Assembly: GCA_963727585.1 (NCBI GenBank)
Contig: CAVSHH010000003.1
Span: forward strand, 2,218,772 to 2,282,771
Source: an uncultured Chloroflexia bacterium
GTDB taxonomy: Bacteria; Chloroflexota; Limnocylindria; Limnocylindrales; CSP1-4
DNA: 64,000 bases
Direction of reading: 5' to 3'
Under the pieces are notes generated by a model that saw only the letters and a list, made by a program, of their open reading frames with translations, did no database searches and was not told where the DNA came from. Below, in pieces: positions 1,961 through 51,919 of the stretch. Numbering within the stretch: the first letter of the stretch is position 1; every line of letters begins with the position of its first letter. A program made the translations under genes and the position numbers.

Positions 1961-3265
1961 TCAGCCGGCGGCCGTGCCGACTGCCTGGACCGACTCCGGT
2001 TGCTCGAGCTCGAACGCGGTGTGCAGCGCGCGCACGGCCTCCTGGACACGGTCCTCGGCGATGATCGTCGTGATCCGGATCTCCGAGGTGGAGATCATCT
2101 CGATGTTGATCCCCGCGTCGGCCAGCGTCCCGAACATCCGGGCGGCGTATCCGGGCGCGTTGTGGATCCCGGCGCCCACGATGGACACCTTGGCCACGGA
2201 GGAGTCCGTGGTCATGTCGCGGAACCCAAGCTCTCCGATGAGCGGCTCCAGGATCCGCTTGGCCCTCGCCAGCTCGATGCGCGGGATCGTGAACGAGAGG
2301 TCGGTGGCGGCGCCGTGACCGACGTTCTGGACGATCATGTCCACGTTGATGCCGTTGTCGGCCAGGGGGCCGAACACGCTTCGCGCGACACCCGGCCGGT
2401 CGGGCACGTCCACCAGCGTGATCTTGGCGACGTTCCGGTCGTGGGCGATCCCCCGGACCTTGTTCCGCTGCTCCACGAGCGGGTCCTCCCTGATCTGCGT
2501 TCCGGGCGCGTCCTCGAACGAACTGAGGACCTCGATGACGACGTTGTTGACCCAGCCCAGCTCCACGGCCCGCACCTGCATCACCTGGGCGCCCTGGTGC
2601 GCGAGCTCCATCATCTCCTCGTACCCGACCACGGGCAGCTGGCGGGCGTCCGTGACGATCCGCGGATCCGCGGTGTAGATGCCCGTCACGTCGGTGAAGA
2701 TCTGGCAGCGGTCGGCGCCGAGCTGGGCCGCCAGCGCGACGGCCGTGGTGTCCGAGCCGCCCCGCCCGAGCGTCGTGATCTCGGCTGCATGGACATCGCT
2801 TGCGGTGGGGGTGAGGTCGAGTCCCTCGAGGGCGGCGACGCTCATGCCCTGGAAGCCGGCCACGATGACCACCTTGCCGGCCGCCAGCTCCGCGCGCACC
2901 CGGCGGGGGTCGATGACGCCGATCCTCGCCTTGCCGTAGCGGCCGTCCGTCGTGATCCCGGCCTGCGGGCCGGTGAGGCTGATCGCCGCCACGCCCAGCG
3001 ACTGGAGGGCCATGGACATCAGCGTTGCGCTCTGGTGCTCGCCGGTCGACAGCAGGACGTCCAGCTCCCGGGCGTCCGGCTCGTCAGTGATCGCGGCGGC
3101 GAGCGCCAGCAGCTCGTCGGTCGTGTCGCCCATCGCAGACACGACCACCACCAGCTGGGAGCCCTTGGCACGCTCCCCGACGATCCGTCGCGCCACGCGC
3201 TTGATGCGCTCGGCGTTGGCCACGGACGAACCACCGAACTTCATGACGACGAGGAGGCCGGGCAT
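1961..3265 (-). CDS. ask: aspartate kinase
   Basis: Begins with the KFGGSSV kinase N-terminus, then VVVSAMGDTTDEL, and ends with two C-terminal ACT-domain repeats (ITLVDVPDRPGVARSVFGPLADNGINVDMIVQNV ... VSIVGAGIHNAPGYAARMFGTLADAGINIEMISTSE). The ORF track begins at a TTG at 3268; an ATG at 3265 and an internal ATG at 3244 are alternatives. Confidence 0.9.
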   Translation of the reverse strand: MPGLLVVMKFGGSSVANAERIKRVARRIVGERAKGSQLVVVVSAMGDTTDELLALAAAITDEPDARELDVLLSTGEHQSATLMSMALQSLGVAAISLTGPQAGITTDGRYGKARIGVIDPRRVRAELAAGKVVIVAGFQGMSVAALEGLDLTPTASDVHAAEITTLGRGGSDTTAVALAAQLGADRCQIFTDVTGIYTADPRIVTDARQLPVVGYEEMMELAHQGAQVMQVRAVELGWVNNVVIEVLSSFEDAPGTQIREDPLVEQRNKVRGIAHDRNVAKITLVDVPDRPGVARSVFGPLADNGINVDMIVQNVGHGAATDLSFTIPRIELARAKRILEPLIGELGFRDMTTDSSVAKVSIVGAGIHNAPGYAARMFGTLADAGINIEMISTSEIRITTIIAEDRVQEAVRALHTAFELEQPESVQAVGTAAG

Positions 3266-3614
3266 CAACTCATTCTACCCGAGGGGCGGCCGCAGCCGAC
3301 CCGGTCGAGCTGGTTGCGGACCGGTGACGGCGGGGGCGCGGACCGGTTCCGGTGCCGGGCGGCGGCCAGGCCTCAACCTCCGTGCCAGCTACTGCCGGGG
3401 GCTGATGTTGATGGCGCTCCGCTCGCGATTTCATGGTGCGAATCAGTCGATAGCGGCTCATCGGACCCGCCTCGTGCACGTTCCGCACGCCGCGACATCG
3501 GCGGGGGGCGGATATCGGGTGCCTCCGGTTCCGGGCGGGGCCTCTCGCCCAAGCCACGAACCGCCACCTGCGCGACAATCGTGCCCCATCCGCTCCCCGA
3601 CCCGGAGGTGTCCC

Positions 3615-4379
3615 ATGTGCTTCGACCACGACTCCCGGCCGCCGATCCTTCCCATCGAGGGCGGCGCGCTGGATGCACAGGAGCTCGTGCTCGAGGCGGG
3701 GGACGGCAACCGGTTCGCGGCCTACCTCGCGAGCGCCGCCGAGCCGACCGGGGCCGGGATGATCGTGCTGCCCGACGTCCGCGGGCTCCACGCCTACTAT
3801 CGCGAGCTGGCGCTGCGGTTCGCGGAGCACGGCGTCGATGCGATCGCGATCGACTACTTCGGGCGGACCGCCGGCATCGGTGACCGGGGGCCGGACTTCG
3901 ATCACGTCCCGCACGTGGCCCGGACGACCCAGGCGGGGCTGCGCGCCGACGTCACCGCCGCTGCGGCGCACTTGCGGGCAGCAGCCGGCGTGAGCCGCCT
4001 GTTCACGATCGGCTTCTGCATGGGCGGTCGCGTATCGTTCCTGGCCGACGGCTTCGGCCTGGGACCCGCGGGCGTGATCGGTTTCTACGGCTGGCCGGTG
4101 GGCGCCTCCCGCAACGACACTGCGGCGCCGGCCGACGTGGTGAACACCTTCGAGGCGCCGGTGCTGGCGATCTTCGGGGGTGCGGATCAGGGCATCGGGG
4201 AGGACGCGGTGGAGGCCTTCGAGACCGCCCTGACCGGTGCCGGCCTGGAACATCGCATCGTCACCTACGCGGGCGCCCCCCACTCGTTCTTCGACCGGAA
4301 GCACGAGGAGTTCGCTGCCGCATCGGCGGCGGCCTGGGACGAGGTCCTGCGCTTCGTGCGCGAGACGGGCGTGCACTGA
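3615..4379 (+). CDS. dienelactone hydrolase family protein
   Basis: Alpha/beta hydrolase of the DLH type (VLPDVRGLHAYYRELALRFAEHGVDAIAIDYFGR ... FTIGFCMGGRVSFLA ... YAGAPHSFFD). The ATG at 3615 is preceded by a GGAGGTG Shine-Dalgarno. The upstream part of the 475-aa ORF is low-complexity and taken as non-coding. Confidence 0.8.
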   Translation: MCFDHDSRPPILPIEGGALDAQELVLEAGDGNRFAAYLASAAEPTGAGMIVLPDVRGLHAYYRELALRFAEHGVDAIAIDYFGRTAGIGDRGPDFDHVPHVARTTQAGLRADVTAAAAHLRAAAGVSRLFTIGFCMGGRVSFLADGFGLGPAGVIGFYGWPVGASRNDTAAPADVVNTFEAPVLAIFGGADQGIGEDAVEAFETALTGAGLEHRIVTYAGAPHSFFDRKHEEFAAASAAAWDEVLRFVRETGVH

Positions 4380-4381
4380 GG

Positions 4382-4633
4382 ATGGGCTTCCTGCGGCGAC
4401 TCCTCGGCGGCGACCGGGAGGAACGATCCCCTCATCCCGACGCCAGCCTCGAGCCGGTGGACCTGGCGGCGGAGGAGCAGGCGCGTGATCGCGAGCTGCT
4501 TCGGGCCGAGGCCGGCCGGTTGGACGACGAGCTGCTGCAGCGCCAGCTGCGCTACGCCGACCGGTCGTGGACACCGCCGCCACAGGGCGGCGCGCGCCGG
4601 GCAGGTGACGAGGACGGCGCGCCCGAAGGCTGA
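4382..4633 (+). CDS. hypothetical protein (83 aa, charged, Glu/Arg-rich)
   Basis: ORF starts 3 nt after the DLH stop, suggesting an operon position. No recognisable domain. Confidence 0.3.
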   Translation: MGFLRRLLGGDREERSPHPDASLEPVDLAAEEQARDRELLRAEAGRLDDELLQRQLRYADRSWTPPPQGGARRAGDEDGAPEG

Positions 4634-4707
4634 CGGCTACGGCCGCGGCGGCTCGGGCTGCGGTGGCTCGGGCCGCGCCGGACGACCTGGCCGACCGGCG
4701 CCTCGCG

Positions 4708-4893
4708 TCAGCGCTTGACGATCAGCCACAGCACGAGCAGGGCGAGACCCACGCCCAACACCGGCAGGACGCCCGCGGGCAGGGCGCTCGACACCGCGTC
4801 GACCATGCCCTGGAGCGCGGACCCGATCGCCGCGAGGGCGCCGCTCACGAGGCCCGAGATCCCGTCGCCCACCGAGCGCAGCAATCCGTCCAT
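4708..4893 (-). CDS. hypothetical small membrane protein (61 aa)
   Basis: Internal ATG of the 154-aa ORF. The C-terminal 61 aa form a glycine-zipper-like segment plus a hydrophobic helix (MDGLLRSVGDGISGLVSGALAAIGSALQGMVDAVSSALPAGVLPVLGVGLALLVLWLIVKR). The upstream part of the ORF is low-complexity. No clear Shine-Dalgarno. Confidence 0.3.
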   Translation of the reverse strand: MDGLLRSVGDGISGLVSGALAAIGSALQGMVDAVSSALPAGVLPVLGVGLALLVLWLIVKR

Positions 4894-5008
4894 GGCGCGC
4901 AGTGTGCGCCCCGGCCGCGGGGTGCGCAGGCGCACGCCCCGGGAGGACCCCGGGCCGCGTACGCTGTGGGCATCCATTTCCGCGCAGCACGATACGAACG
5001 AGGCCTCG

Positions 5009-5236
5009 ATGAAGGAACGGCTCATCGGCGACGACCAGCTGCTCGTCACCGCCGACACGACCATGGGCGACCCGCTGTGGGACTGGGTTGCCGCCGACGC
5101 GGCGCGGCGCTCGCCGGAGGGCTGGCGCATCGCGAACATCGGCGCAGTGTCGACCGGTGTCGGTGCTCCCAACCCCGCCTACGGCTACGCCCCGCCCCCC
5201 ACCGGCGTCACGCTCTGGATCCTCTACCGCAAGTGA
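5009..5236 (+). CDS. hypothetical protein (75 aa)
   Basis: Internal ATG at 5009 (MKERLIGDDQLLVTADTTMGDPLWDWVAADAARRSPEGWRIANIGAVSTGVGAPNPAYGYAPPPTGVTLWILYRK). Its stop overlaps the GTG of the next gene (GTGA). Confidence 0.3.
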   Translation: MKERLIGDDQLLVTADTTMGDPLWDWVAADAARRSPEGWRIANIGAVSTGVGAPNPAYGYAPPPTGVTLWILYRK

Positions 5237-5904
5237 GCGACGCCGGCGTGCCCGGCCCGGGCGACCCCGCGGCATCGCCCCCGTCCGATCGCGTCCGCCT
5301 GCGGCGCAAGCCGAAGCGCGGCCACTATGACCGCGCAGTCGTCGACGCCATCCTCGACGGCGCGATCGTCGGCACGGTGGCCTGGGTCCGGGACGGCCAG
5401 CCATACGCAACCCCCACCTCCGTCTGGCGCCAGGGTGACCGGCTGTACTGGCATGCCTCGGTCGGCAGCACGATGGCCCGGACGGTTGATGGCCAGCCGG
5501 TGTGCGTCACCGTCCACCATCTCGACGCGCTGGTCCTCGCGCGGAGCGCCATCAACCACTCCGTCGACTACCGGTCGGTCATGGCGCTGGGCACGGCGCG
5601 CCTGGTCACCGACGAGGCACAGATCGACGAGTCGCTCGAGGCGTTCGTGGAGCATCTCTACCCGGGCCGCTGGGCGGAGCTCCGGCCGATGACCGATGCC
5701 GAACGGCGCCAGACCGCGGTCTTCTGGATCGACCTGTCCGAGGCATCGGCCAAGGTCCGTGCCGAGGGAGCGCACGACGACCCGGGTGACGAGACGTGGC
5801 CGACGTGGGCGGGCAGCCTGCCGGTACGCCTGGTCGCCAGCGAGCCCGAGCCGGACGGGTTCGTGCCCGAGGGCACGGCCGTGCCGAAGGCGCGGCTGCC
5901 ATAG
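5233..5904 (+). CDS. pyridoxamine 5'-phosphate oxidase family protein (FMN/F420-binding split-barrel)
   Basis: PNPOx-like split-barrel core (RRKPKRGHYDRAVVDAILDGAIVGTVAWVRDGQPYATPTSVWRQGDRLYWHASVGSTMARTV ... AVFWIDLSEASAKVRAEG). GTG start at 5233 overlaps the preceding stop. The start is uncertain. Confidence 0.65.
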   Translation: MSDAGVPGPGDPAASPPSDRVRLRRKPKRGHYDRAVVDAILDGAIVGTVAWVRDGQPYATPTSVWRQGDRLYWHASVGSTMARTVDGQPVCVTVHHLDALVLARSAINHSVDYRSVMALGTARLVTDEAQIDESLEAFVEHLYPGRWAELRPMTDAERRQTAVFWIDLSEASAKVRAEGAHDDPGDETWPTWAGSLPVRLVASEPEPDGFVPEGTAVPKARLP

Positions 5905-5917
5905 CAGCCTCGCGCCG

Positions 5918-6931
5918 TCAGGTCGCCTCGATGATCTCCGGCCCGCGGTTGCGCGGCGCCACGATCCGGGTCACGCCCTCGAGATCCTCGGCAGCCGCGG
6001 CATCTGCCAGCGCCCGCTCGACCGGCGCAGCGTCCGCGCCCGGCGCCACGAACGCGAGGACGGTCGACCCGGCCCCGGACAGGAACGCGCCCAGCGCGCC
6101 CGCCGCGCGGGCCGCCCCGGTCAGCCGCGGCAGCTGCGGGTAGGCGACCGAGCGGTACGGCTCGTGGATCCGGTCGAGGGTCAGGTCCGCGAGCAGCTCG
6201 TAGCGCCCGCTGGCGATGCCGGCGACGCCGATCGCGACCCGGCTCATGTTGCTGACCGCGTCCCGCAGCGGAACTTCGGCGGGCAGCACCCGCCGCATGT
6301 CGGCCGTGGACAGCCGGCGATCCGGGATGAACAGCACCGCCCGCAACCCGTCGGGGGCATCGAACCGCACAGCCTCGACCCGCTCGCCGAGATGGGCAGA
6401 CACGACGAACCCGCCCAGCAGCGCCGCCGAGGCATTGTCGGGGTGACCCTCGAGCGCGGTAGCCAGCCGGAGCTGGGCATCCGCGCCCAGGCGCTCCCCG
6501 CCCAGCAGGTTGCCTGCGACCACGCCACCCACGGAGGCCGCCGCCGATGAGCCCATGCCCCGCGACAGCGGGATCCGGTTGTGCATCGTGACCCGCCACC
6601 CGATCGCCGCGGGCCGGGGCCCGATCGACGCCTCGAGCGCACGCTCCAGCCCGGCCACGAACCGGTTGTCGCGGACCGCCGGCAGCTCGCCCACTCCTTC
6701 ACCGCTGACGTCGATCCAGAGCCCGCCGTCGTCGGTCACCTCGAGCGCGACCCGGTTGCATACCTCGAGCGCCAGTCCGAGGCAGTCGTAGCCCGCCCCG
6801 AGGTTGGCCGTCGAGGCAGGCACGTCGAGCACAAGCCGGCGCCCGACGAGCGCTGCCCACGCGGCGGCATCGAGGGCGGCCGGGGCCGGGACCGGCGGGT
6901 TGGCGATCGGGACCTTGCCCGGGGGGTTCAC
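5918..6931 (-). CDS. thrB: homoserine kinase
   Basis: GHMP kinase motifs are present ([26 protein letters not shown] ... [13 protein letters not shown]). GTG start at 6931 overlaps the thrC stop (GTGA). Gene order hom-thrC-thrB matches actinobacteria. Confidence 0.85.
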
Positions 6932-9891: not shown

Positions 9892-10911
9892 ATGACCATT
9901 GAGCTCATGCCGGCTCCGTCGCCCACGGAGGCTCCGGCTCCTCGCCCGCGCATCTTCTCGGGCATCCAGCCCTCCGGGATCGTGCACCTCGGCAACGACC
10001 TCGGCGCGATCCGGAACTACGTGATGCTCCAGTTCGAGTACGAGGCGATCTACTGCATCGTCGACTACCACGCCCTGACCAGCACGCACGACCCGGTGGC
10101 CATGCGGGCACGTACCCGTGAGATGGCCGCCAGCCTGCTCGCGCTTGGCCTGGACCCGGAGCGCTGCACGCTGTTCGTCCAGAGCCACCGCCCCGAGCAC
10201 ACGGAGCTGATGTGGCTGCTCGCGACCGTGACCCCCGTCAGCTGGCTGGAGCGGACGCCCACCTACAAGGACAAGATCGCCAACCAGCCGGACGACGTGA
10301 ACCACGGGCTGCTGACGTATCCGGTGCTCCAGGCGGCCGACATCGTGCTCTACAAGGCCTCGCTGGTGCCCGTGGGCAAGGACCAGGCGGCGCATCTCGA
10401 GCTCAGTCGCGAGATCGTCCGCTCGTTCAACAACCGGTACGGCGCGACCTTCCCGGAGCCGCAGGCGGTCTTCACCAGCGCGCCCGTCGTGCTGGGCACC
10501 GACGGCGTCAAGAAGATGTCCAAGTCGGTCGGCAACACGATCGAGATCCTGGCCTCGCCGGACGAGATCCGGAAGCAGGTCATGTCGATGGTCACCGACA
10601 CCCAGCGGGTCCTGCGCACCGACCCCGGCCGGCCCGAGGTGTGCAACGTCTGCCAGCTGCACCGCTTCTTCGGGGACGACTACGAGGAGATCTGGGATGG
10701 GGAGCGGACGGCGCGAACCGGGTGTGTCGACACCAAGCGGCTGCTGGCCCAGCGGATCATCGACCGCTACGCAGCCGCTCGCGAGCGCTACGCGGAGCTG
10801 ATGGCCAATCCTGCCGACGTCGACGGGATCCTCGAAGCCGGCGCTGACCGCCTCAAGCCGCTGGCCCGGGCCACGCTGGCCGAGGTCAAGGCGAAGATGG
10901 GGCTGCGCTAG
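9892..10911 (+). CDS. trpS: tryptophan--tRNA ligase
   Basis: Class I aaRS motifs are present: the HIGH-like segment (SGIQPSGIVHLGN) and KMSKS (VKKMSKSVGN). Full-length, 339 aa. Confidence 0.95.
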   Translation: MTIELMPAPSPTEAPAPRPRIFSGIQPSGIVHLGNDLGAIRNYVMLQFEYEAIYCIVDYHALTSTHDPVAMRARTREMAASLLALGLDPERCTLFVQSHRPEHTELMWLLATVTPVSWLERTPTYKDKIANQPDDVNHGLLTYPVLQAADIVLYKASLVPVGKDQAAHLELSREIVRSFNNRYGATFPEPQAVFTSAPVVLGTDGVKKMSKSVGNTIEILASPDEIRKQVMSMVTDTQRVLRTDPGRPEVCNVCQLHRFFGDDYEEIWDGERTARTGCVDTKRLLAQRIIDRYAAARERYAELMANPADVDGILEAGADRLKPLARATLAEVKAKMGLR

Positions 10912-23444: not shown

Positions 23445-24575
23445 TTACCCAGCACTCCCGCTGCGCCCGTGCAGGAATCGCTCCAGACCGTCCAGTGCCG
23501 CCGGCATGTCGGTCCGCCCGAAGCCGAGCCGGAAATGGTTGCCACCGTGGCCGAAGATCGAGCCTGGCGCGACCAGCACCCCTTCGGCATCCAGCAGGTC
23601 CATGGCGAAGCGGTCAACCGGGGCGCCGGTCAGGAGCTCCGGGAAGCCGACCGGGCCGCCGGCCGGCCGCACCCAGCCAACTCGGGCGGCGTTGCGCTCG
23701 AAGAACGTGTCGAGAAGGGCGAGATTCGTGTCCACGATCGCCCGCGACCGCTCGAGCACCCGATCGCGCGCCCGGAGCGCCACCAGCGCCAGGATCTCGG
23801 CCGGCGCCGAGGCGCAGATCGTGGTGTAGTCCTTGAACCGGGTTGCGCGACCCAGCAGGGCAGCATCGTGCGAGGCGATCCAGCCGATCCGCAAGCCCGC
23901 CATCGCGAACGACTTGGACATCACCCCGACGCTCACCGCGTGCGGACCCAGATCGGCCCCGGCCGGCAGCCGGTCGGGCAGACCGTGCTCGAGAAACCGG
24001 TAGACCTCGTCCACGAGCAGCGTCGCCCCGGCGTCGGCGGCCAGCTCCGAGATGGCGCGGAAGGTCGCCGGGTCGGGCACGGCCCCCGTCGGGTTGTGGG
24101 GAACATTGACCACGATCAGGCGGGTGCGTGGGGTGAGCTCGGCTCGCAGGCGTTCGGGATCCAGCGACCAGCCATCCTCGGCGCGCAGCTCGTGGAGGGT
24201 CACCTGGGCGCCGACGGCGCGCGCGACCTCGTGCAGGCTCTGGTAGGCGGGCCAGGCGACGATGGCATGGTCGCCCGGCGCGAGGAGCACGTTGGCGGCG
24301 ATGAAGATCGCCTCCTCCGCCCCGCTGAACACGAGCACCTCGGCGGGATCGATCGACTCGTACAGCCTGGCGATCTCGGCTCGGAGCAAGGGGTGGCCGG
24401 GTGCCTCCGTGTAGCCCAGGCGCAGGTCGCGCCACAGCTCCGACGTCTCGGCGTCGGCAAGGGCGAGCAGCTCCGCCATCGGCCAGCCCTCGACATCCGA
24501 GGCGCACAGCAGGTGATGCACGGCGAACTCGTACCGGGCGAAGAACCGCTCGAGCGCGAAGTCGTCGATCCGCAT
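23445..24575 (-). CDS. pyridoxal-phosphate-dependent aminotransferase, class I/II fold
   Basis: Has NPTG and a PLP lysine in SVGVMSKSFAMAGLRIGW, with an AAT-like fold. 376 aa. Confidence 0.85.
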   Translation of the reverse strand: MRIDDFALERFFARYEFAVHHLLCASDVEGWPMAELLALADAETSELWRDLRLGYTEAPGHPLLRAEIARLYESIDPAEVLVFSGAEEAIFIAANVLLAPGDHAIVAWPAYQSLHEVARAVGAQVTLHELRAEDGWSLDPERLRAELTPRTRLIVVNVPHNPTGAVPDPATFRAISELAADAGATLLVDEVYRFLEHGLPDRLPAGADLGPHAVSVGVMSKSFAMAGLRIGWIASHDAALLGRATRFKDYTTICASAPAEILALVALRARDRVLERSRAIVDTNLALLDTFFERNAARVGWVRPAGGPVGFPELLTGAPVDRFAMDLLDAEGVLVAPGSIFGHGGNHFRLGFGRTDMPAALDGLERFLHGRSGSAG

Positions 24576-24641
24576 CAGGGCATTGTGCGCCGCCGCGGGG
24601 CGGCGGGAAGCCGGTCGCCGGCGGTGGGATGCGGCCTGGCG

Positions 24642-24681
24642 CTAGGTGGCCGGTGTGAAACGCGCGTTCTGACGGGCTGAC
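24642..24681. repeat. IS terminal inverted repeat (left)
   Basis: 39 of 40 nt are the reverse complement of 26437-26476. Confidence 0.8.
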
Positions 24682-24793
24682 CGGACCGCGCGTGTGGTCG
24701 GTGGATGTGATCGGGTGATTGGCGCCCGGATCATGCGGCAACCGTCCCCCGAGCGTGCTCCGGCTGCTCCCCGAGACGGGCCTTGGCCCTCCG

Positions 24794-26368
24794 TCAGGCT
24801 GGCCGGACCGCCCAGGTCCCGCCAGATCCCGTCACCCGGAGGACCGCGAGGCGTGCGAGGTTGACCGCGGCGGCGAGGAGGGCGAAGTCGGCGCCAACCT
24901 TCAGCCTGCCGCGGACACGAGCCCGCCGCCCGCCGTGTCGTCGGCGGACGAGATGGGCGAGCTTGCGCTCGACCTTGGGACGCGTTGCCCGGTAGTCGGC
25001 GAGCCAGGCGGGGTCGCGCGTGTCGGCGCGGCCGGCAGTGAGAAGCGCCTCGTGCGGGCCGACAGCGATCGAGCGACCGCGAGCCGAGGTCGTGCACCGG
25101 CTGACCAGCGGGCAGGTGGTACAGGCGCTTCGGAAGCGCGCCTGGGCCTCGCCGCGCTGATGCCGCGTGAGCCTGGCGACCCGACCGGCGGGACAGGTGA
25201 CGGTGCCGGCGCCGAGGTCGATCGTGAAGTCGTCCTTGGTGAAGTGCCCAGGCACGCCGTTCGCAGGCTGGACCTTGACCCGGCTGAGCGCGCCCGCCTC
25301 GTCGAGCGCTTCGAGCACCGGGCCCGTCCCATACGCCGCGTCGCCGTACACGACGGGCGGGGTGGCGGGTGCGGCTTCGCGCGCGAGGTCGTGGGTGAGC
25401 AGGGCGAGGGCAACCGAGGCGTCGCCGGCGTTGCCCGGGGTGACCGCGGTCGCGGTGACGAGCTCATGGTCAGGGTCGATCGCGACGTGGCCCTTGTAGC
25501 CGTCGAACCCCCGGGCCTCGGTCTTGTGGCCGTGGCGGGTGTCGGGATCGACCGTGCTGATCACCCGGTCGGGGGCGACCCGCCGGGCGATCCGCACCCG
25601 GCCGTCCGGACCCGGCTCGAGGTCCTGGCCGAGCACCGTGGCGAGCAGGACCGCGGCCTCGGCAAGCGGAGCCTCGAGCGGCTCGCCCTCGAGCCCGGCG
25701 AGCACGGCCTCGCCGTCGCGGGCGAGGGCGTCGACCAGGGCCGCCCGGGCGGTGGCGTCATCCCAGTCCGCGGCGGGCTTGCCGCCCTGGCGGTAGTCGT
25801 CGTCGCGCCGGAGGACGGTGCGCAGGCCGGGCTCGCGCCCGCCCGATGCCGCGAGCACGCCCTGGATCGCCGAGCGGACCAGGGTGACCGTGTCCATGGT
25901 CGCGACCGCGTCGTACAGGGGCGTGGAGTCGAGCACCCGCCGGACGCCGACCAGGCCAGCACCCCGCGCGACCTCGAGCGTGCGCTCGAAGATCCGGTTG
26001 GGACGCTCCGAGCGGGCGAGCCTCGCCCGCATGTCGACGAGCACCGTGTGGGCGAAGCCCGGGGCATCGAAGGGCTGGCCGCCGGCGGCGTACTTCCAGC
26101 GCGCGTCGAAGGTGTACCGCTCGACGGCCTCGCGGTCGGACAGGCCCTCGAGGCGCTGGAGGACCATCACGACCGCGACGACCAGGGGCGGCACCGAGCG
26201 CCGGCCGACGTTGGCCGCGAACAGGTCGCTGAACAGCTCGTCAGGGAACAGCGTGTGGCACTCTCGGGCGAGCAGGGCATGGATCGAGTCGGATCGGACC
26301 AGCGGCTCGACGAAGCTGGCGGTGTCGCGGAACAGGTCGGCCTGACGGGGTGTGGATCCCTGCGACAT
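24794..26368 (-). CDS. IS1182 family transposase (DDE)
   Basis: InsH-type N-terminal domain (ADLFRDTASFVEPLVRSDSIHALLARE), a DDE domain (VDPDTRHGHKTEARGFDGYKGHVAIDPD) and a Cys-rich C-terminus (CPAGRV ... CTTCPLVSRC), as in IS1182-family transposases. Confidence 0.85.
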   Translation of the reverse strand: MSQGSTPRQADLFRDTASFVEPLVRSDSIHALLARECHTLFPDELFSDLFAANVGRRSVPPLVVAVVMVLQRLEGLSDREAVERYTFDARWKYAAGGQPFDAPGFAHTVLVDMRARLARSERPNRIFERTLEVARGAGLVGVRRVLDSTPLYDAVATMDTVTLVRSAIQGVLAASGGREPGLRTVLRRDDDYRQGGKPAADWDDATARAALVDALARDGEAVLAGLEGEPLEAPLAEAAVLLATVLGQDLEPGPDGRVRIARRVAPDRVISTVDPDTRHGHKTEARGFDGYKGHVAIDPDHELVTATAVTPGNAGDASVALALLTHDLAREAAPATPPVVYGDAAYGTGPVLEALDEAGALSRVKVQPANGVPGHFTKDDFTIDLGAGTVTCPAGRVARLTRHQRGEAQARFRSACTTCPLVSRCTTSARGRSIAVGPHEALLTAGRADTRDPAWLADYRATRPKVERKLAHLVRRRHGGRRARVRGRLKVGADFALLAAAVNLARLAVLRVTGSGGTWAVRPA

Positions 26369-26436
26369 CGGTGTGCTCCTGCGATCAGCCCGGCAGCTCC
26401 TGCCAGGGAGAATCGTAGCTGCGCCCGAGCCTGTCC

Positions 26437-26476
26437 GTCAGCCCGTCAGAACGCGCGTTTCACACCAGCCACCTAG
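26437..26476. repeat. IS terminal inverted repeat (right)
   Basis: gtcagcccgtcagaacgcgcgtttcacaccagccacctag. Confidence 0.8.
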
Positions 26477-27180
26477 GGGCCGACCTCCGCGAGCGCGGCG
26501 GCGAGCTGGACCGTCGTGGCCTGGTCGAGCCCGGTGGTGGCGAGGTACCACATCGGGCGCTCGCCGGGTGCGGCGACCACCGCGAACCCGGTCCCGGTCT
26601 GCAGGAGCGTCCCGTCGAGCGGTCCCAGCGCGGCGGGGCCGAGGTCGGTGCCACCCGTGTCGCAGCCGCCGTTGACGGCGCACGAGCTGCCCTCGTCGAG
26701 CCGCAGCGTCGCCCCACCCGGCCCCGCGTACTCGACGTAGACCCAGCCGCCGTTCCCGGTCCGGTACCGCCCGCTCTGGAGGTACCAGCCCTTGCGCATG
26801 ACGCCGCACAGGACCGGCCAATCGACGGCGTTCGCGATGGCGTCGAAGAAGGCGCGGTTCTCGTCGGTCCCGGTGCACGCCTCGGCGCGCCCGGTCGGCG
26901 TCGAGGCGGACGGATCGTCGGTCGGGGTCTCGGTCGGGGATGCCGCCGGCGACTCGGTGAACGTCGCGCTCGGCGATGCCGCCGGAGAATCGGTGGGCGT
27001 CCCGCTCGGCGGCTCCGTGGCCGGCACCACCCCGGTAGCGGGCGCGGCGGACAGGCTGGGCCAGGTGGTGGGCGCCGCCGTGGGAGCGGCCGATCCATCC
27101 GAGGCCGGCGGCGAACCTCCGCACGTCGCGGCAAGCATGGCGACGACCGCCACGAGGACGAGAGCGCGGAACCTGGGCAC
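26473..27180 (-). CDS. putative lipoprotein (Pro/Thr/Ser-rich linker plus C-terminal Cys-containing domain)
   Basis: Signal peptide with a lipobox (MPRFRALVLVAVVAMLAATCGG). Its TAG stop lies inside the terminal CTAG of the IS right inverted repeat. Confidence 0.6.
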   Translation of the reverse strand: MPRFRALVLVAVVAMLAATCGGSPPASDGSAAPTAAPTTWPSLSAAPATGVVPATEPPSGTPTDSPAASPSATFTESPAASPTETPTDDPSASTPTGRAEACTGTDENRAFFDAIANAVDWPVLCGVMRKGWYLQSGRYRTGNGGWVYVEYAGPGGATLRLDEGSSCAVNGGCDTGGTDLGPAALGPLDGTLLQTGTGFAVVAAPGERPMWYLATTGLDQATTVQLAAALAEVGP

Positions 27181-50962: not shown

Positions 50963-51919
50963 CTAGCTGCCTGCCAGCCGCTCGACCACCGGCGCGAGGG
51001 TGTCGGGGTCACCGACCATGAACGAGCTGATGCCCAGGCGCTCGCGGAGCTCCCTGAGCTTGGCCACCAGGCCGTCGACCGACCCGATGAACACATGGGG
51101 CGAGGCCAGGAAGTCGTCGACCTCGATCTCCACGCCCGTCCTTGCCCGGATGCCGTCGAGCAGGTCCGCGGCCACCTTGCGCGGCGTGTCGGTCACCAGG
51201 GGCGGGCTGCCGGTCGGGTAGACGTTGAGCTCGAGGGTGGCGAAGCGGTTGCCGGCCGCCTCGCGGACCCAGCCGATCTTCTCCTCGGTCGCCCTGAGGG
51301 TGATCGAGCGCGGGTCGCTCCGAACGAGCGGTCCATCACCGCCCGGCATGGTGCGCGGCGCCAGGCCCACGATGTCGGCCTCCCGTCCCGCCAGCGACAG
51401 GACGCGCTGGCCGCCGCCGCCGATGAACAGCGGCGGATGCGGCTGCTGGACCGGGCGCGGCAGGCCGGCGTGATCCGTGATCGCGTAGTGCTCGCCGCGG
51501 AACGAGTACGGCTCGCCGCGGAATGCGCCCTTGACCACGGCCACGGCCTCGGCCAGGCGCGCCACCCGCACCGGACCGGGGTCGAACGGGATGCCGAGGG
51601 CATCGTACTCGGGCCGGTTCCAGCCGGCGCCCATCGCCACTTCCACCCGACCGTCGGACAGCACGTCGAGCGTGGCCAGGTCCTGGGCCAGGAGCGCCGG
51701 GTGGCGCAGGTCGTTGTTGGCCACGAACGGCGCCAACCGCAGGCGCTCGGTTGCAGCCGCCGCCCAGGTCAGGACCGGGAGCATGGCGAGATCGTTCACC
51801 ACGTGGTCCGGGTAGACAAACGCGCTATAGCCCATCGATTCCGCTCGGCGTGCTGCCTCGGTCAGCGCCCTGCCGCCGGCAACCTCGTCCGGCCCGGCGA
51901 GGAAGCGGAACGGTCTCAC
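50963..51919 (-). CDS. LLM-class F420-dependent (luciferase-like) oxidoreductase
   Basis: TIM-barrel LLM signatures are present (SMGYSAFVYPDHV ... RLAPFVANNDLRHPALLAQDLATLDVLSDGRVEVAMGAGW ... PLFIGGGGQRVLSLAGREADIVGL). GTG start overlaps the stop of the upstream paralogue (GTGA). Confidence 0.75.
   Translation of the reverse strand: MRPFRFLAGPDEVAGGRALTEAARRAESMGYSAFVYPDHVVNDLAMLPVLTWAAAATERLRLAPFVANNDLRHPALLAQDLATLDVLSDGRVEVAMGAGWNRPEYDALGIPFDPGPVRVARLAEAVAVVKGAFRGEPYSFRGEHYAITDHAGLPRPVQQPHPPLFIGGGGQRVLSLAGREADIVGLAPRTMPGGDGPLVRSDPRSITLRATEEKIGWVREAAGNRFATLELNVYPTGSPPLVTDTPRKVAADLLDGIRARTGVEIEVDDFLASPHVFIGSVDGLVAKLRELRERLGISSFMVGDPDTLAPVVERLAGS

Follow-up and report, generated by a model that had tools for sequence, protein, structure and literature searches.

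An IS1182-family insertion sequence at the CTAG stop site of a lipoprotein gene in a Chloroflexota-like genome

IS1182 and other insertion sequences with short palindromic targets

Insertion sequences (ISs) of the IS1182 family are about 1.3–1.95 kb long in ISfinder and are bounded by terminal inverted repeats. Targets of the CTAG type are familiar from two other groups, IS5, which inserts at YTAR with a 4-bp duplication, and IS630, a Tc1/mariner-like DDE family that inserts at CTAG and duplicates the TA. The subject of this study is one complete insertion sequence at positions 24642–26476 of a 64,000-nucleotide stretch of DNA from an uncultured Chloroflexia bacterium (the whole stretch is here called the window), where CTAG stands at both of its ends and one of these overlaps the stop codon of a putative lipoprotein gene. 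We consider it very likely that this is a complete, autonomous and recently mobile IS1182-family element that inserted at a CTAG, and that its position at a stop codon is explained by the rarity of CTAG. Behaviour of this kind toward 4-bp palindromic targets is already known in the IS1182 family: ISPse1 of Paracoccus seriniphilus has 4-bp direct repeats (PMC3281130, Table 2), the target of ISPsy36 of Pseudomonas syringae pv. actinidiae is the palindrome GGCC (PMC8027508), and a further paper reports palindrome targeting for some members (PMC5678879, citing Siguier et al.). A full-text literature search that combined IS1182 with CTAG turned up no description of CTAG as a target of this family.

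The element in the window shares with the IS1182 family, as defined in ISfinder and by the NCBIfam model NF033551, one long DDE transposase that has DUF772 at its N-terminus and DDE_Tnp_1_6 at its C-terminus, as well as a size of 1.8 kb and terminal inverted repeats that start GGTGGCTGGTGT-like; its 1827-bp core and 36-nt repeats fall within the family range of about 1.3–1.95 kb. Its transposase is 59% identical in amino acid sequence to those of IS1182-family elements on Rhodococcus plasmids and 49% identical to that of an IS1182-like, ISMgi3-type element of Mycolicibacterium gilvum. It differs from these annotated relatives in its Chloroflexota-like host, with the closest copies in ‘Chloroflexia’ and Limnocylindrales metagenome-assembled genomes (MAGs), and in its repeats, which measure 36–59 nt in the Chloroflexia-type clade (loci L001–L008) as against a core of roughly 11–13 nt in actinobacterial relatives. 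In the actinobacterial and myxobacterial relatives (L017–L080) the repeats are about 15–17 nt including CTAG, and the outer GGTGGCTGGTGT core is common to both groups. The 4-bp direct repeat of ISPse1 and the 4-bp palindromic target of ISPsy36 match the behaviour inferred here, although these elements, compared by description and not by sequence, are of 1653 and 1666 bp with 16-nt repeats, and ISPsy36 targets GGCC instead of CTAG. IS5 and IS630 resemble the element in inserting at a CTAG-type palindrome, and IS630 presents the same uncertainty as to whether 4 bp or 2 bp are duplicated, but they belong to other transposase families and the IS5 models fail their cut-offs on the window transposase. 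The element is probably a new IS1182 member that needs a new IS name, given that the best annotated relatives found reach at most 59% amino acid identity and that ISfinder names a new IS when its identity to a named IS is below 95% in amino acids or below 90% in nucleotides.

The terminal CTAGs and the lipoprotein stop

A repeat scan found inverted arms at 24633–24681 and 26437–26485, whose perfect register begins at CTAG (24642–24645 and 26473–26476). From these bases inward, 39 of 40 positions are complementary between 24642–24681 and 26437–26476, and the 37-nt repeat core occurs exactly twice in the window and in none of 100 shuffles. An earlier reading of the locus, made from the sequence alone, had described 40-bp repeats; their complementarity stands, but the outermost CTAG of each arm is most likely a duplicated palindromic target and not part of the repeat. 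The IS proper would then extend from 24646 to 26472 (1827 bp, transposase on the minus strand) and end in 36-nt terminal inverted repeats complementary at 35 of 36 positions, namely the transposase-distal repeat IRR at 24646–24681, GGTGGCCGGTGTGAAACGCGCGTTCTGACGGGCTGAC, and the transposase-proximal repeat IRL at 26437–26472. The coordinates given in the sequence-only reading, those of the element, the lipoprotein stop and the aminotransferase, all hold.

CTAG adjoins nearly every related IS end. A scan of a genome collection for relatives returned 80 loci, in 63 of which both ends could be identified by terminus-pattern pairing; most of these have CTAG at both ends within unrelated flanks, and the tabulated ends read CTAG followed by GGTGGCTGGTGT or GGAGGCTGGTGT. 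On 43 metagenome contigs that carry this subgroup's repeat, 55 of 57 ends are CTAG-GTGGC, likewise with unrelated flanks. A search of the non-CTAG ends for matched non-palindromic duplications yielded the two deviating ends among the 57 (CTGG and TCAG), neither of them informative. Constancy of CTAG does not by itself tell an IS end from a target, and the distinction depends on what lies at tandem and IS-free sites.

Two loci on Rhodococcus plasmids bear on this distinction. The plasmid of Rhodococcus sp. DMU1 (NZ_CP050953.1, locus 2434–6187) carries two head-to-tail IS1182-family copies that have one CTAG in common, with a junction reading ...ACACCAGCCAT-CTAG-ATGGCTGGTGT... and three CTAGs for two elements; because the copies are only 97.8% identical, the tandem is not an assembly duplicate. 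On the plasmid of Rhodococcus sp. M8-35, the occupied site has a single CTAG per side. Sequences homologous to its left flank but lacking the IS (in RHA1 pRHL1 and USK13) read ...ATATCGT-CTAG before they diverge, and one homologous to its right flank, also lacking the IS (in R. aetherivorans), is CTAG-GCCGTGTTT..., so that CTAG acts as the target in these relatives. As a separate observation, the left CTAG of the DMU1 tandem starts 2 nt past the TGA with which an enoyl-CoA hydratase gene ends.

The window itself can be compared with relatives that lack the IS. Removal of the IS and one CTAG yields the empty site GAGGTCGGCCC-CTAG-CGCCAGGCC, which aligns without a break with the IS-free locus L083, GAGGTCGGGCG-CTAG-GTCCAGGCC; the original 66-nt spacer between the lipoprotein gene and the aminotransferase gene (24576–24641, minus strand) aligns continuously with L083, L084 and L082 across this reconstructed site. 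The lipoprotein gene (26473–27180, minus strand) encodes 235 amino acids from a GTG start, and an invariant Cys follows the signal peptide of its product; the corresponding database entry (221 amino acids, 26473–27138) starts 14 codons downstream, at a codon that is GTG in the window DNA. Positions 26473–26475, reverse-complemented, give the TAG stop of the gene, which lies inside the lipoprotein-side CTAG (26473–26476), as the sequence-only reading had recognized and as both the sequence and the list of open reading frames (ORFs) bear out. In an alignment of the window translation with 13 database matches, all 14 proteins end within one or two columns of each other. The five IS-free orthologues with DNA read, which are 39–57% identical, all have TAG at the window gene's stop codon, and in three of them (L083, L091 and L092) it forms part of a CTAG: the gene ends in ccC TAG in the window, cgC TAG in L083, ggg TAG in L084, aag TAG in L082, gaC TAG in L091 and aaC TAG in L092.

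These comparisons also speak against a different account of the ends, in which the CTAGs are the outermost bases of an IS with 40-nt repeats that duplicates no target, supplies the lipoprotein stop and alters or truncates the original C-terminus. Such an account would suit the presence of CTAG at essentially every end examined, as for a conserved terminus; direct repeats in the IS1182 family are given by ISfinder as 0 bp upward; and, without the IS and both CTAGs, the lipoprotein ORF would continue for 21 codons to a TGA overlapping the aminotransferase ATG. It is nevertheless quite improbable, since a TAG at the identical codon position closes all five orthologues and the aligned homologues terminate almost together, the tandem copies have one CTAG in common instead of two, and the M8-35 site has one CTAG per side although both IS-free flanks already possess it. 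We conclude that the lipoprotein stop is native and would have been regenerated by the duplicated CTAG, leaving the coding sequence unchanged. The sequence-only reading had left it at two options, that the element supplied the stop or that it landed immediately 3′ of it; the comparisons point to insertion into a pre-existing CTAG, formed by the closing C of the final Pro codon together with the native TAG, which would now stand on both sides of the element. Each insertion is inferred to add the element plus four bases to a pre-existing CTAG. Because CTAG is palindromic, duplication of all 4 bp and duplication of the TA within it predict the same sequence and are inseparable here. For annotation, this means that the IS boundaries belong inside the CTAGs and that the lipoprotein gene is to be called intact, not truncated or IS-terminated.

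Copies, recent mobility and family assignment

The best relatives in the genome-collection scan come from ‘uncultured Chloroflexia’ and Limnocylindrales MAGs and show 83–92% protein identity. A copy in another MAG (L001) aligns end to end with bases 1–1835 of the window element at 94.1% DNA identity and has unrelated flanks. A second copy (L090, ENA contig_46179) matches positions 1–1835 at 99.84% DNA identity, with two substitutions and one 1-nt indel, and, flanked by CTAG at either end, occupies an intergenic position near leuS that is unrelated to the site in the window. This end-to-end homology to independent copies supports the extent given above, and the repeats, which might have been peculiar to this locus, are shared with near-identical copies elsewhere. 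L090 also shows the same C/T mismatch between the repeat arms as the window element, which indicates that the mismatch belongs to the element itself and did not arise by decay. In a cluster look-up, both the window transposase and a variant differing at one residue (A408T) are recorded on a 2,374,235-bp contig that bears the lipoprotein gene; the variant is also found on two further contigs, and a third transposase variant on a contig of 1975 bp. Exact-sequence look-ups of the window transposase, the 235-amino-acid lipoprotein and the aminotransferase matched no record. A Logan short-read contig (L081) with an identical lipoprotein gene ends 22 nt beyond the CTAG (26 nt including it), an end typical of a repeat-induced break. 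A live multi-copy IS in the genome would explain such short-read contig breaks, which is relevant to assembly and strain typing.

The copy data support a multi-copy and recently mobile element. The sequence-only reading had suggested recent activity, and the 99.84% identical copy at an unrelated site together with the one-residue variant on the same 2.37-Mb contig bear this out. That the element is instead a decaying relic, no longer mobile, whose palindromic ends and open frame have been kept by chance, is very unlikely. One position does differ between the repeat arms, the 64-kb window holds a single copy, and a consensus promoter scan found no promoter; against this, the same arm difference recurs in the independent 99.84% identical copy, the ORF spans positions 6–487 of the 488 in the family profile, every residue conserved in at least 89% of 19 relatives is present in the window transposase, and the source contig holds at least two copies, with more elsewhere.

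It is the copies, not composition, that speak for mobility. The G+C content of the IS (73.6%) shows no local anomaly relative to the window (72.3%), and this comparison gave no signal of foreign origin. Of the view that the element is the clearest horizontally acquired feature in the window, mobility is thus upheld by the copies, while composition lends it no support.

The transposase is encoded by a single 524-amino-acid ORF between the arms (24794–26368, minus strand), with AGGAG 8 nt upstream of its ATG. NF033551 (NF033551.1, IS1182 family) matches it at 314.2 bits over the profile positions named above, against a curated cut-off of 270 bits, and Pfam models place PF05598 (DUF772, the InsH N-terminal domain) at residues 55–129, PF01609 (DDE_Tnp_1) at 275–504 and PF13751 (DDE_Tnp_1_6) at 391–507. 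In an alignment with 18 relatives, D147 (in DST), D343 (in GDxxYG) and E467 (in Y-x3-R-x3-E) are conserved, reaching at least 89% of 19 relatives; they are the putative catalytic triad. Four cysteines located after the second D and before the E (C392, C416, C419 and C425) are conserved in the relatives as well, so that the Cys-rich C-terminus noted from the sequence is a conserved feature, and they are probably a metal-binding insertion. Family, intactness and the description of a 524-amino-acid DDE transposase with an InsH N-terminus have therefore been confirmed. That the element belongs to IS5 and not to IS1182 is extremely improbable: a CTAG-type target with 4-bp duplication is classic for IS5, JGI annotates several homologues of 81–86% identity as ‘IS5 family transposase’ and the IS5 models do give weak matches, but all of these lie far under their cut-offs (NF033581, 61.9 versus 140; NF033578, 43.4 versus 275; NF033579, 23.1 versus 140; NF033580, 16.8 versus 110) while the IS1182 model passes, the length (524 amino acids, 1.83 kb) and the DUF772/DDE_Tnp_1_6 architecture fit IS1182, and NCBI labels relatives as IS1182 family.

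Several points weigh against the interpretation of the locus as a recently mobile IS1182-family element inserted by duplication of its target. Among the ends surveyed, no non-CTAG variant offers matched direct repeats. An exact empty-site pattern, GCGGAGGTCGGCCC-N{0,4}-CGCCAGGCCGCATCC, had no match in metagenome contigs, and no empty allele came from a near-identical genome, so that the argument for target duplication depends on orthologues of 39–57% protein identity and on distant IS relatives (59% in amino acids). Transposition is read from the distribution of copies and not from direct observation, and the catalytic residues and the chemistry of transposition (cut-and-paste or copy-paste) are likewise presumed.

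Further side observations concern the interior of the element. A subterminal 22-nt direct repeat (24668–24689 and 24790–24811, 18 of 22 positions) extends over the inner portion of the transposase-distal repeat and over the region of the transposase stop, and a 14-nt inverted pair (24791–24804 and 26335–26348) lies close to where the transposase ORF begins and ends. CTGACGG/CCGTCAG is common to all of these subterminal repeats, which could provide additional binding sites for the transposase or could have matched by chance in DNA so rich in G+C.

CTAG scarcity, gene ends and the downstream aminotransferase

At a G+C content of 72.3%, the window contains only 11 CTAGs, compared with about 160 expected from base composition and 39 by a Markov estimate, which amounts to an approximately 15-fold depletion relative to composition; GATC occurs 608 times. 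The CTAGs lie at 10908, 37117, 39850, 43097, 45100, 49472, 50963, 53527 and 60145, in addition to those at 24642 and 26473. As two of the 11 flank the IS, the native sites number ten, and at nine of these a long ORF ends in frame with TAG, the G+C content at its codon positions following the order of coding sequence (third > first > second). Given this depletion, and the survival of CTAG almost only as C plus TAG at gene ends, landing at a stop codon is expected from target preference and requires no special explanation.

Two further observations concern CTAGs between convergent genes. The CTAG at 50963 seems to provide the stop codons of two ORFs that converge on it. In the Chloroflexia MAG locus L003 (CAWHXM010000006.1), the IS at 2871–4717 is flanked on both sides by what look like convergent genes ending in the flanking CTAGs, each open for more than 450 codons and showing the coding pattern at third positions; the original single CTAG there may have been the shared stop of two genes.

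Enrichment of stop sites beyond the preference for CTAG was examined among the relatives and was not significant, the difference being a trend only: gene stops are found at 13 of 52 occupied sites versus 21 of 147 unoccupied CTAGs (odds ratio 2.0, p = 0.09), and in the Chloroflexia clade at five of nine occupied sites versus seven of 29 unoccupied CTAGs (p = 0.11).

The gene downstream of the lipoprotein gene encodes a pyridoxal phosphate-dependent aminotransferase-fold protein (23445–24575, minus strand; PF00155). In IS-free relatives (L082, L083, L084, L091 and L092), the order is Peripla_BP_2, FecCD, ABC_tran, lipoprotein, aminotransferase and then YCII, with the YCII domain fused to the aminotransferase in L091, and the spacer between the lipoprotein and aminotransferase genes is 3 to 114 nt. 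This conserved order and short spacing make co-transcription likely, so that the IS interrupts a conserved unit; the aminotransferase gene, normally directly downstream, is now 1831 bp further from the lipoprotein gene. The separation of these two co-oriented genes, pointed out from the sequence alone, holds.

A polar effect of the insertion on the aminotransferase is plausible. Strong polarity is made less likely by the co-orientation of the transposase gene with both neighbours and, weakly, by the lack of a terminator-like site; a consensus promoter and terminator scan of 24300–26800 found neither, but says little for this phylum. In addition, GCGCACAATGCC-N3-ATG stands directly upstream of the aminotransferase start (motif at plus-strand 24579–24590; ATG at 24575 on the minus strand), and L083 and L084 share this motif and L082 shares part of it, in a spacer that otherwise cannot be aligned. 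The motif may act as a -10-like box, placed 6 nt ahead of the start of a leaderless aminotransferase transcript, in which case the promoter would lie undisturbed between the insertion and the aminotransferase gene, a further point against strong polarity. With respect to function, the best models for the aminotransferase-fold protein are GntC (283 bits) and VioD/capreomycidine synthase (245 bits), both under their cut-offs, and the gene lies in a conserved cluster with the Peripla_BP_2/FecCD/ABC_tran transporter and the lipoprotein, with neighbouring genes up to about 30400.

We propose that the transposase would recognize the terminal repeats and integrate the element into a palindromic CTAG, and that each insertion would add the element and one extra CTAG, by a 4-bp duplication or by duplication of the TA inside CTAG. 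The target here would have been the last base of the final Pro codon and the native TAG stop of the lipoprotein gene, which the duplication would regenerate. The only likely local effect would be on transcription of the aminotransferase gene, now cut off from the upstream ABC-transporter and lipoprotein genes, and altered expression of this gene is the only locally testable consequence of the insertion. A tentative extension, which we regard as possible but rather unlikely, is that this clade of IS1182 is a ‘stop-codon seeker’ in GC-rich genomes, the requirement for CTAG and its regeneration favouring sites that spare the adjacent ORF; if true, stop-codon seeking would amount to a built-in safe-haven strategy. 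The present case shows how target preference together with depletion of a tetranucleotide places insertions at gene ends.

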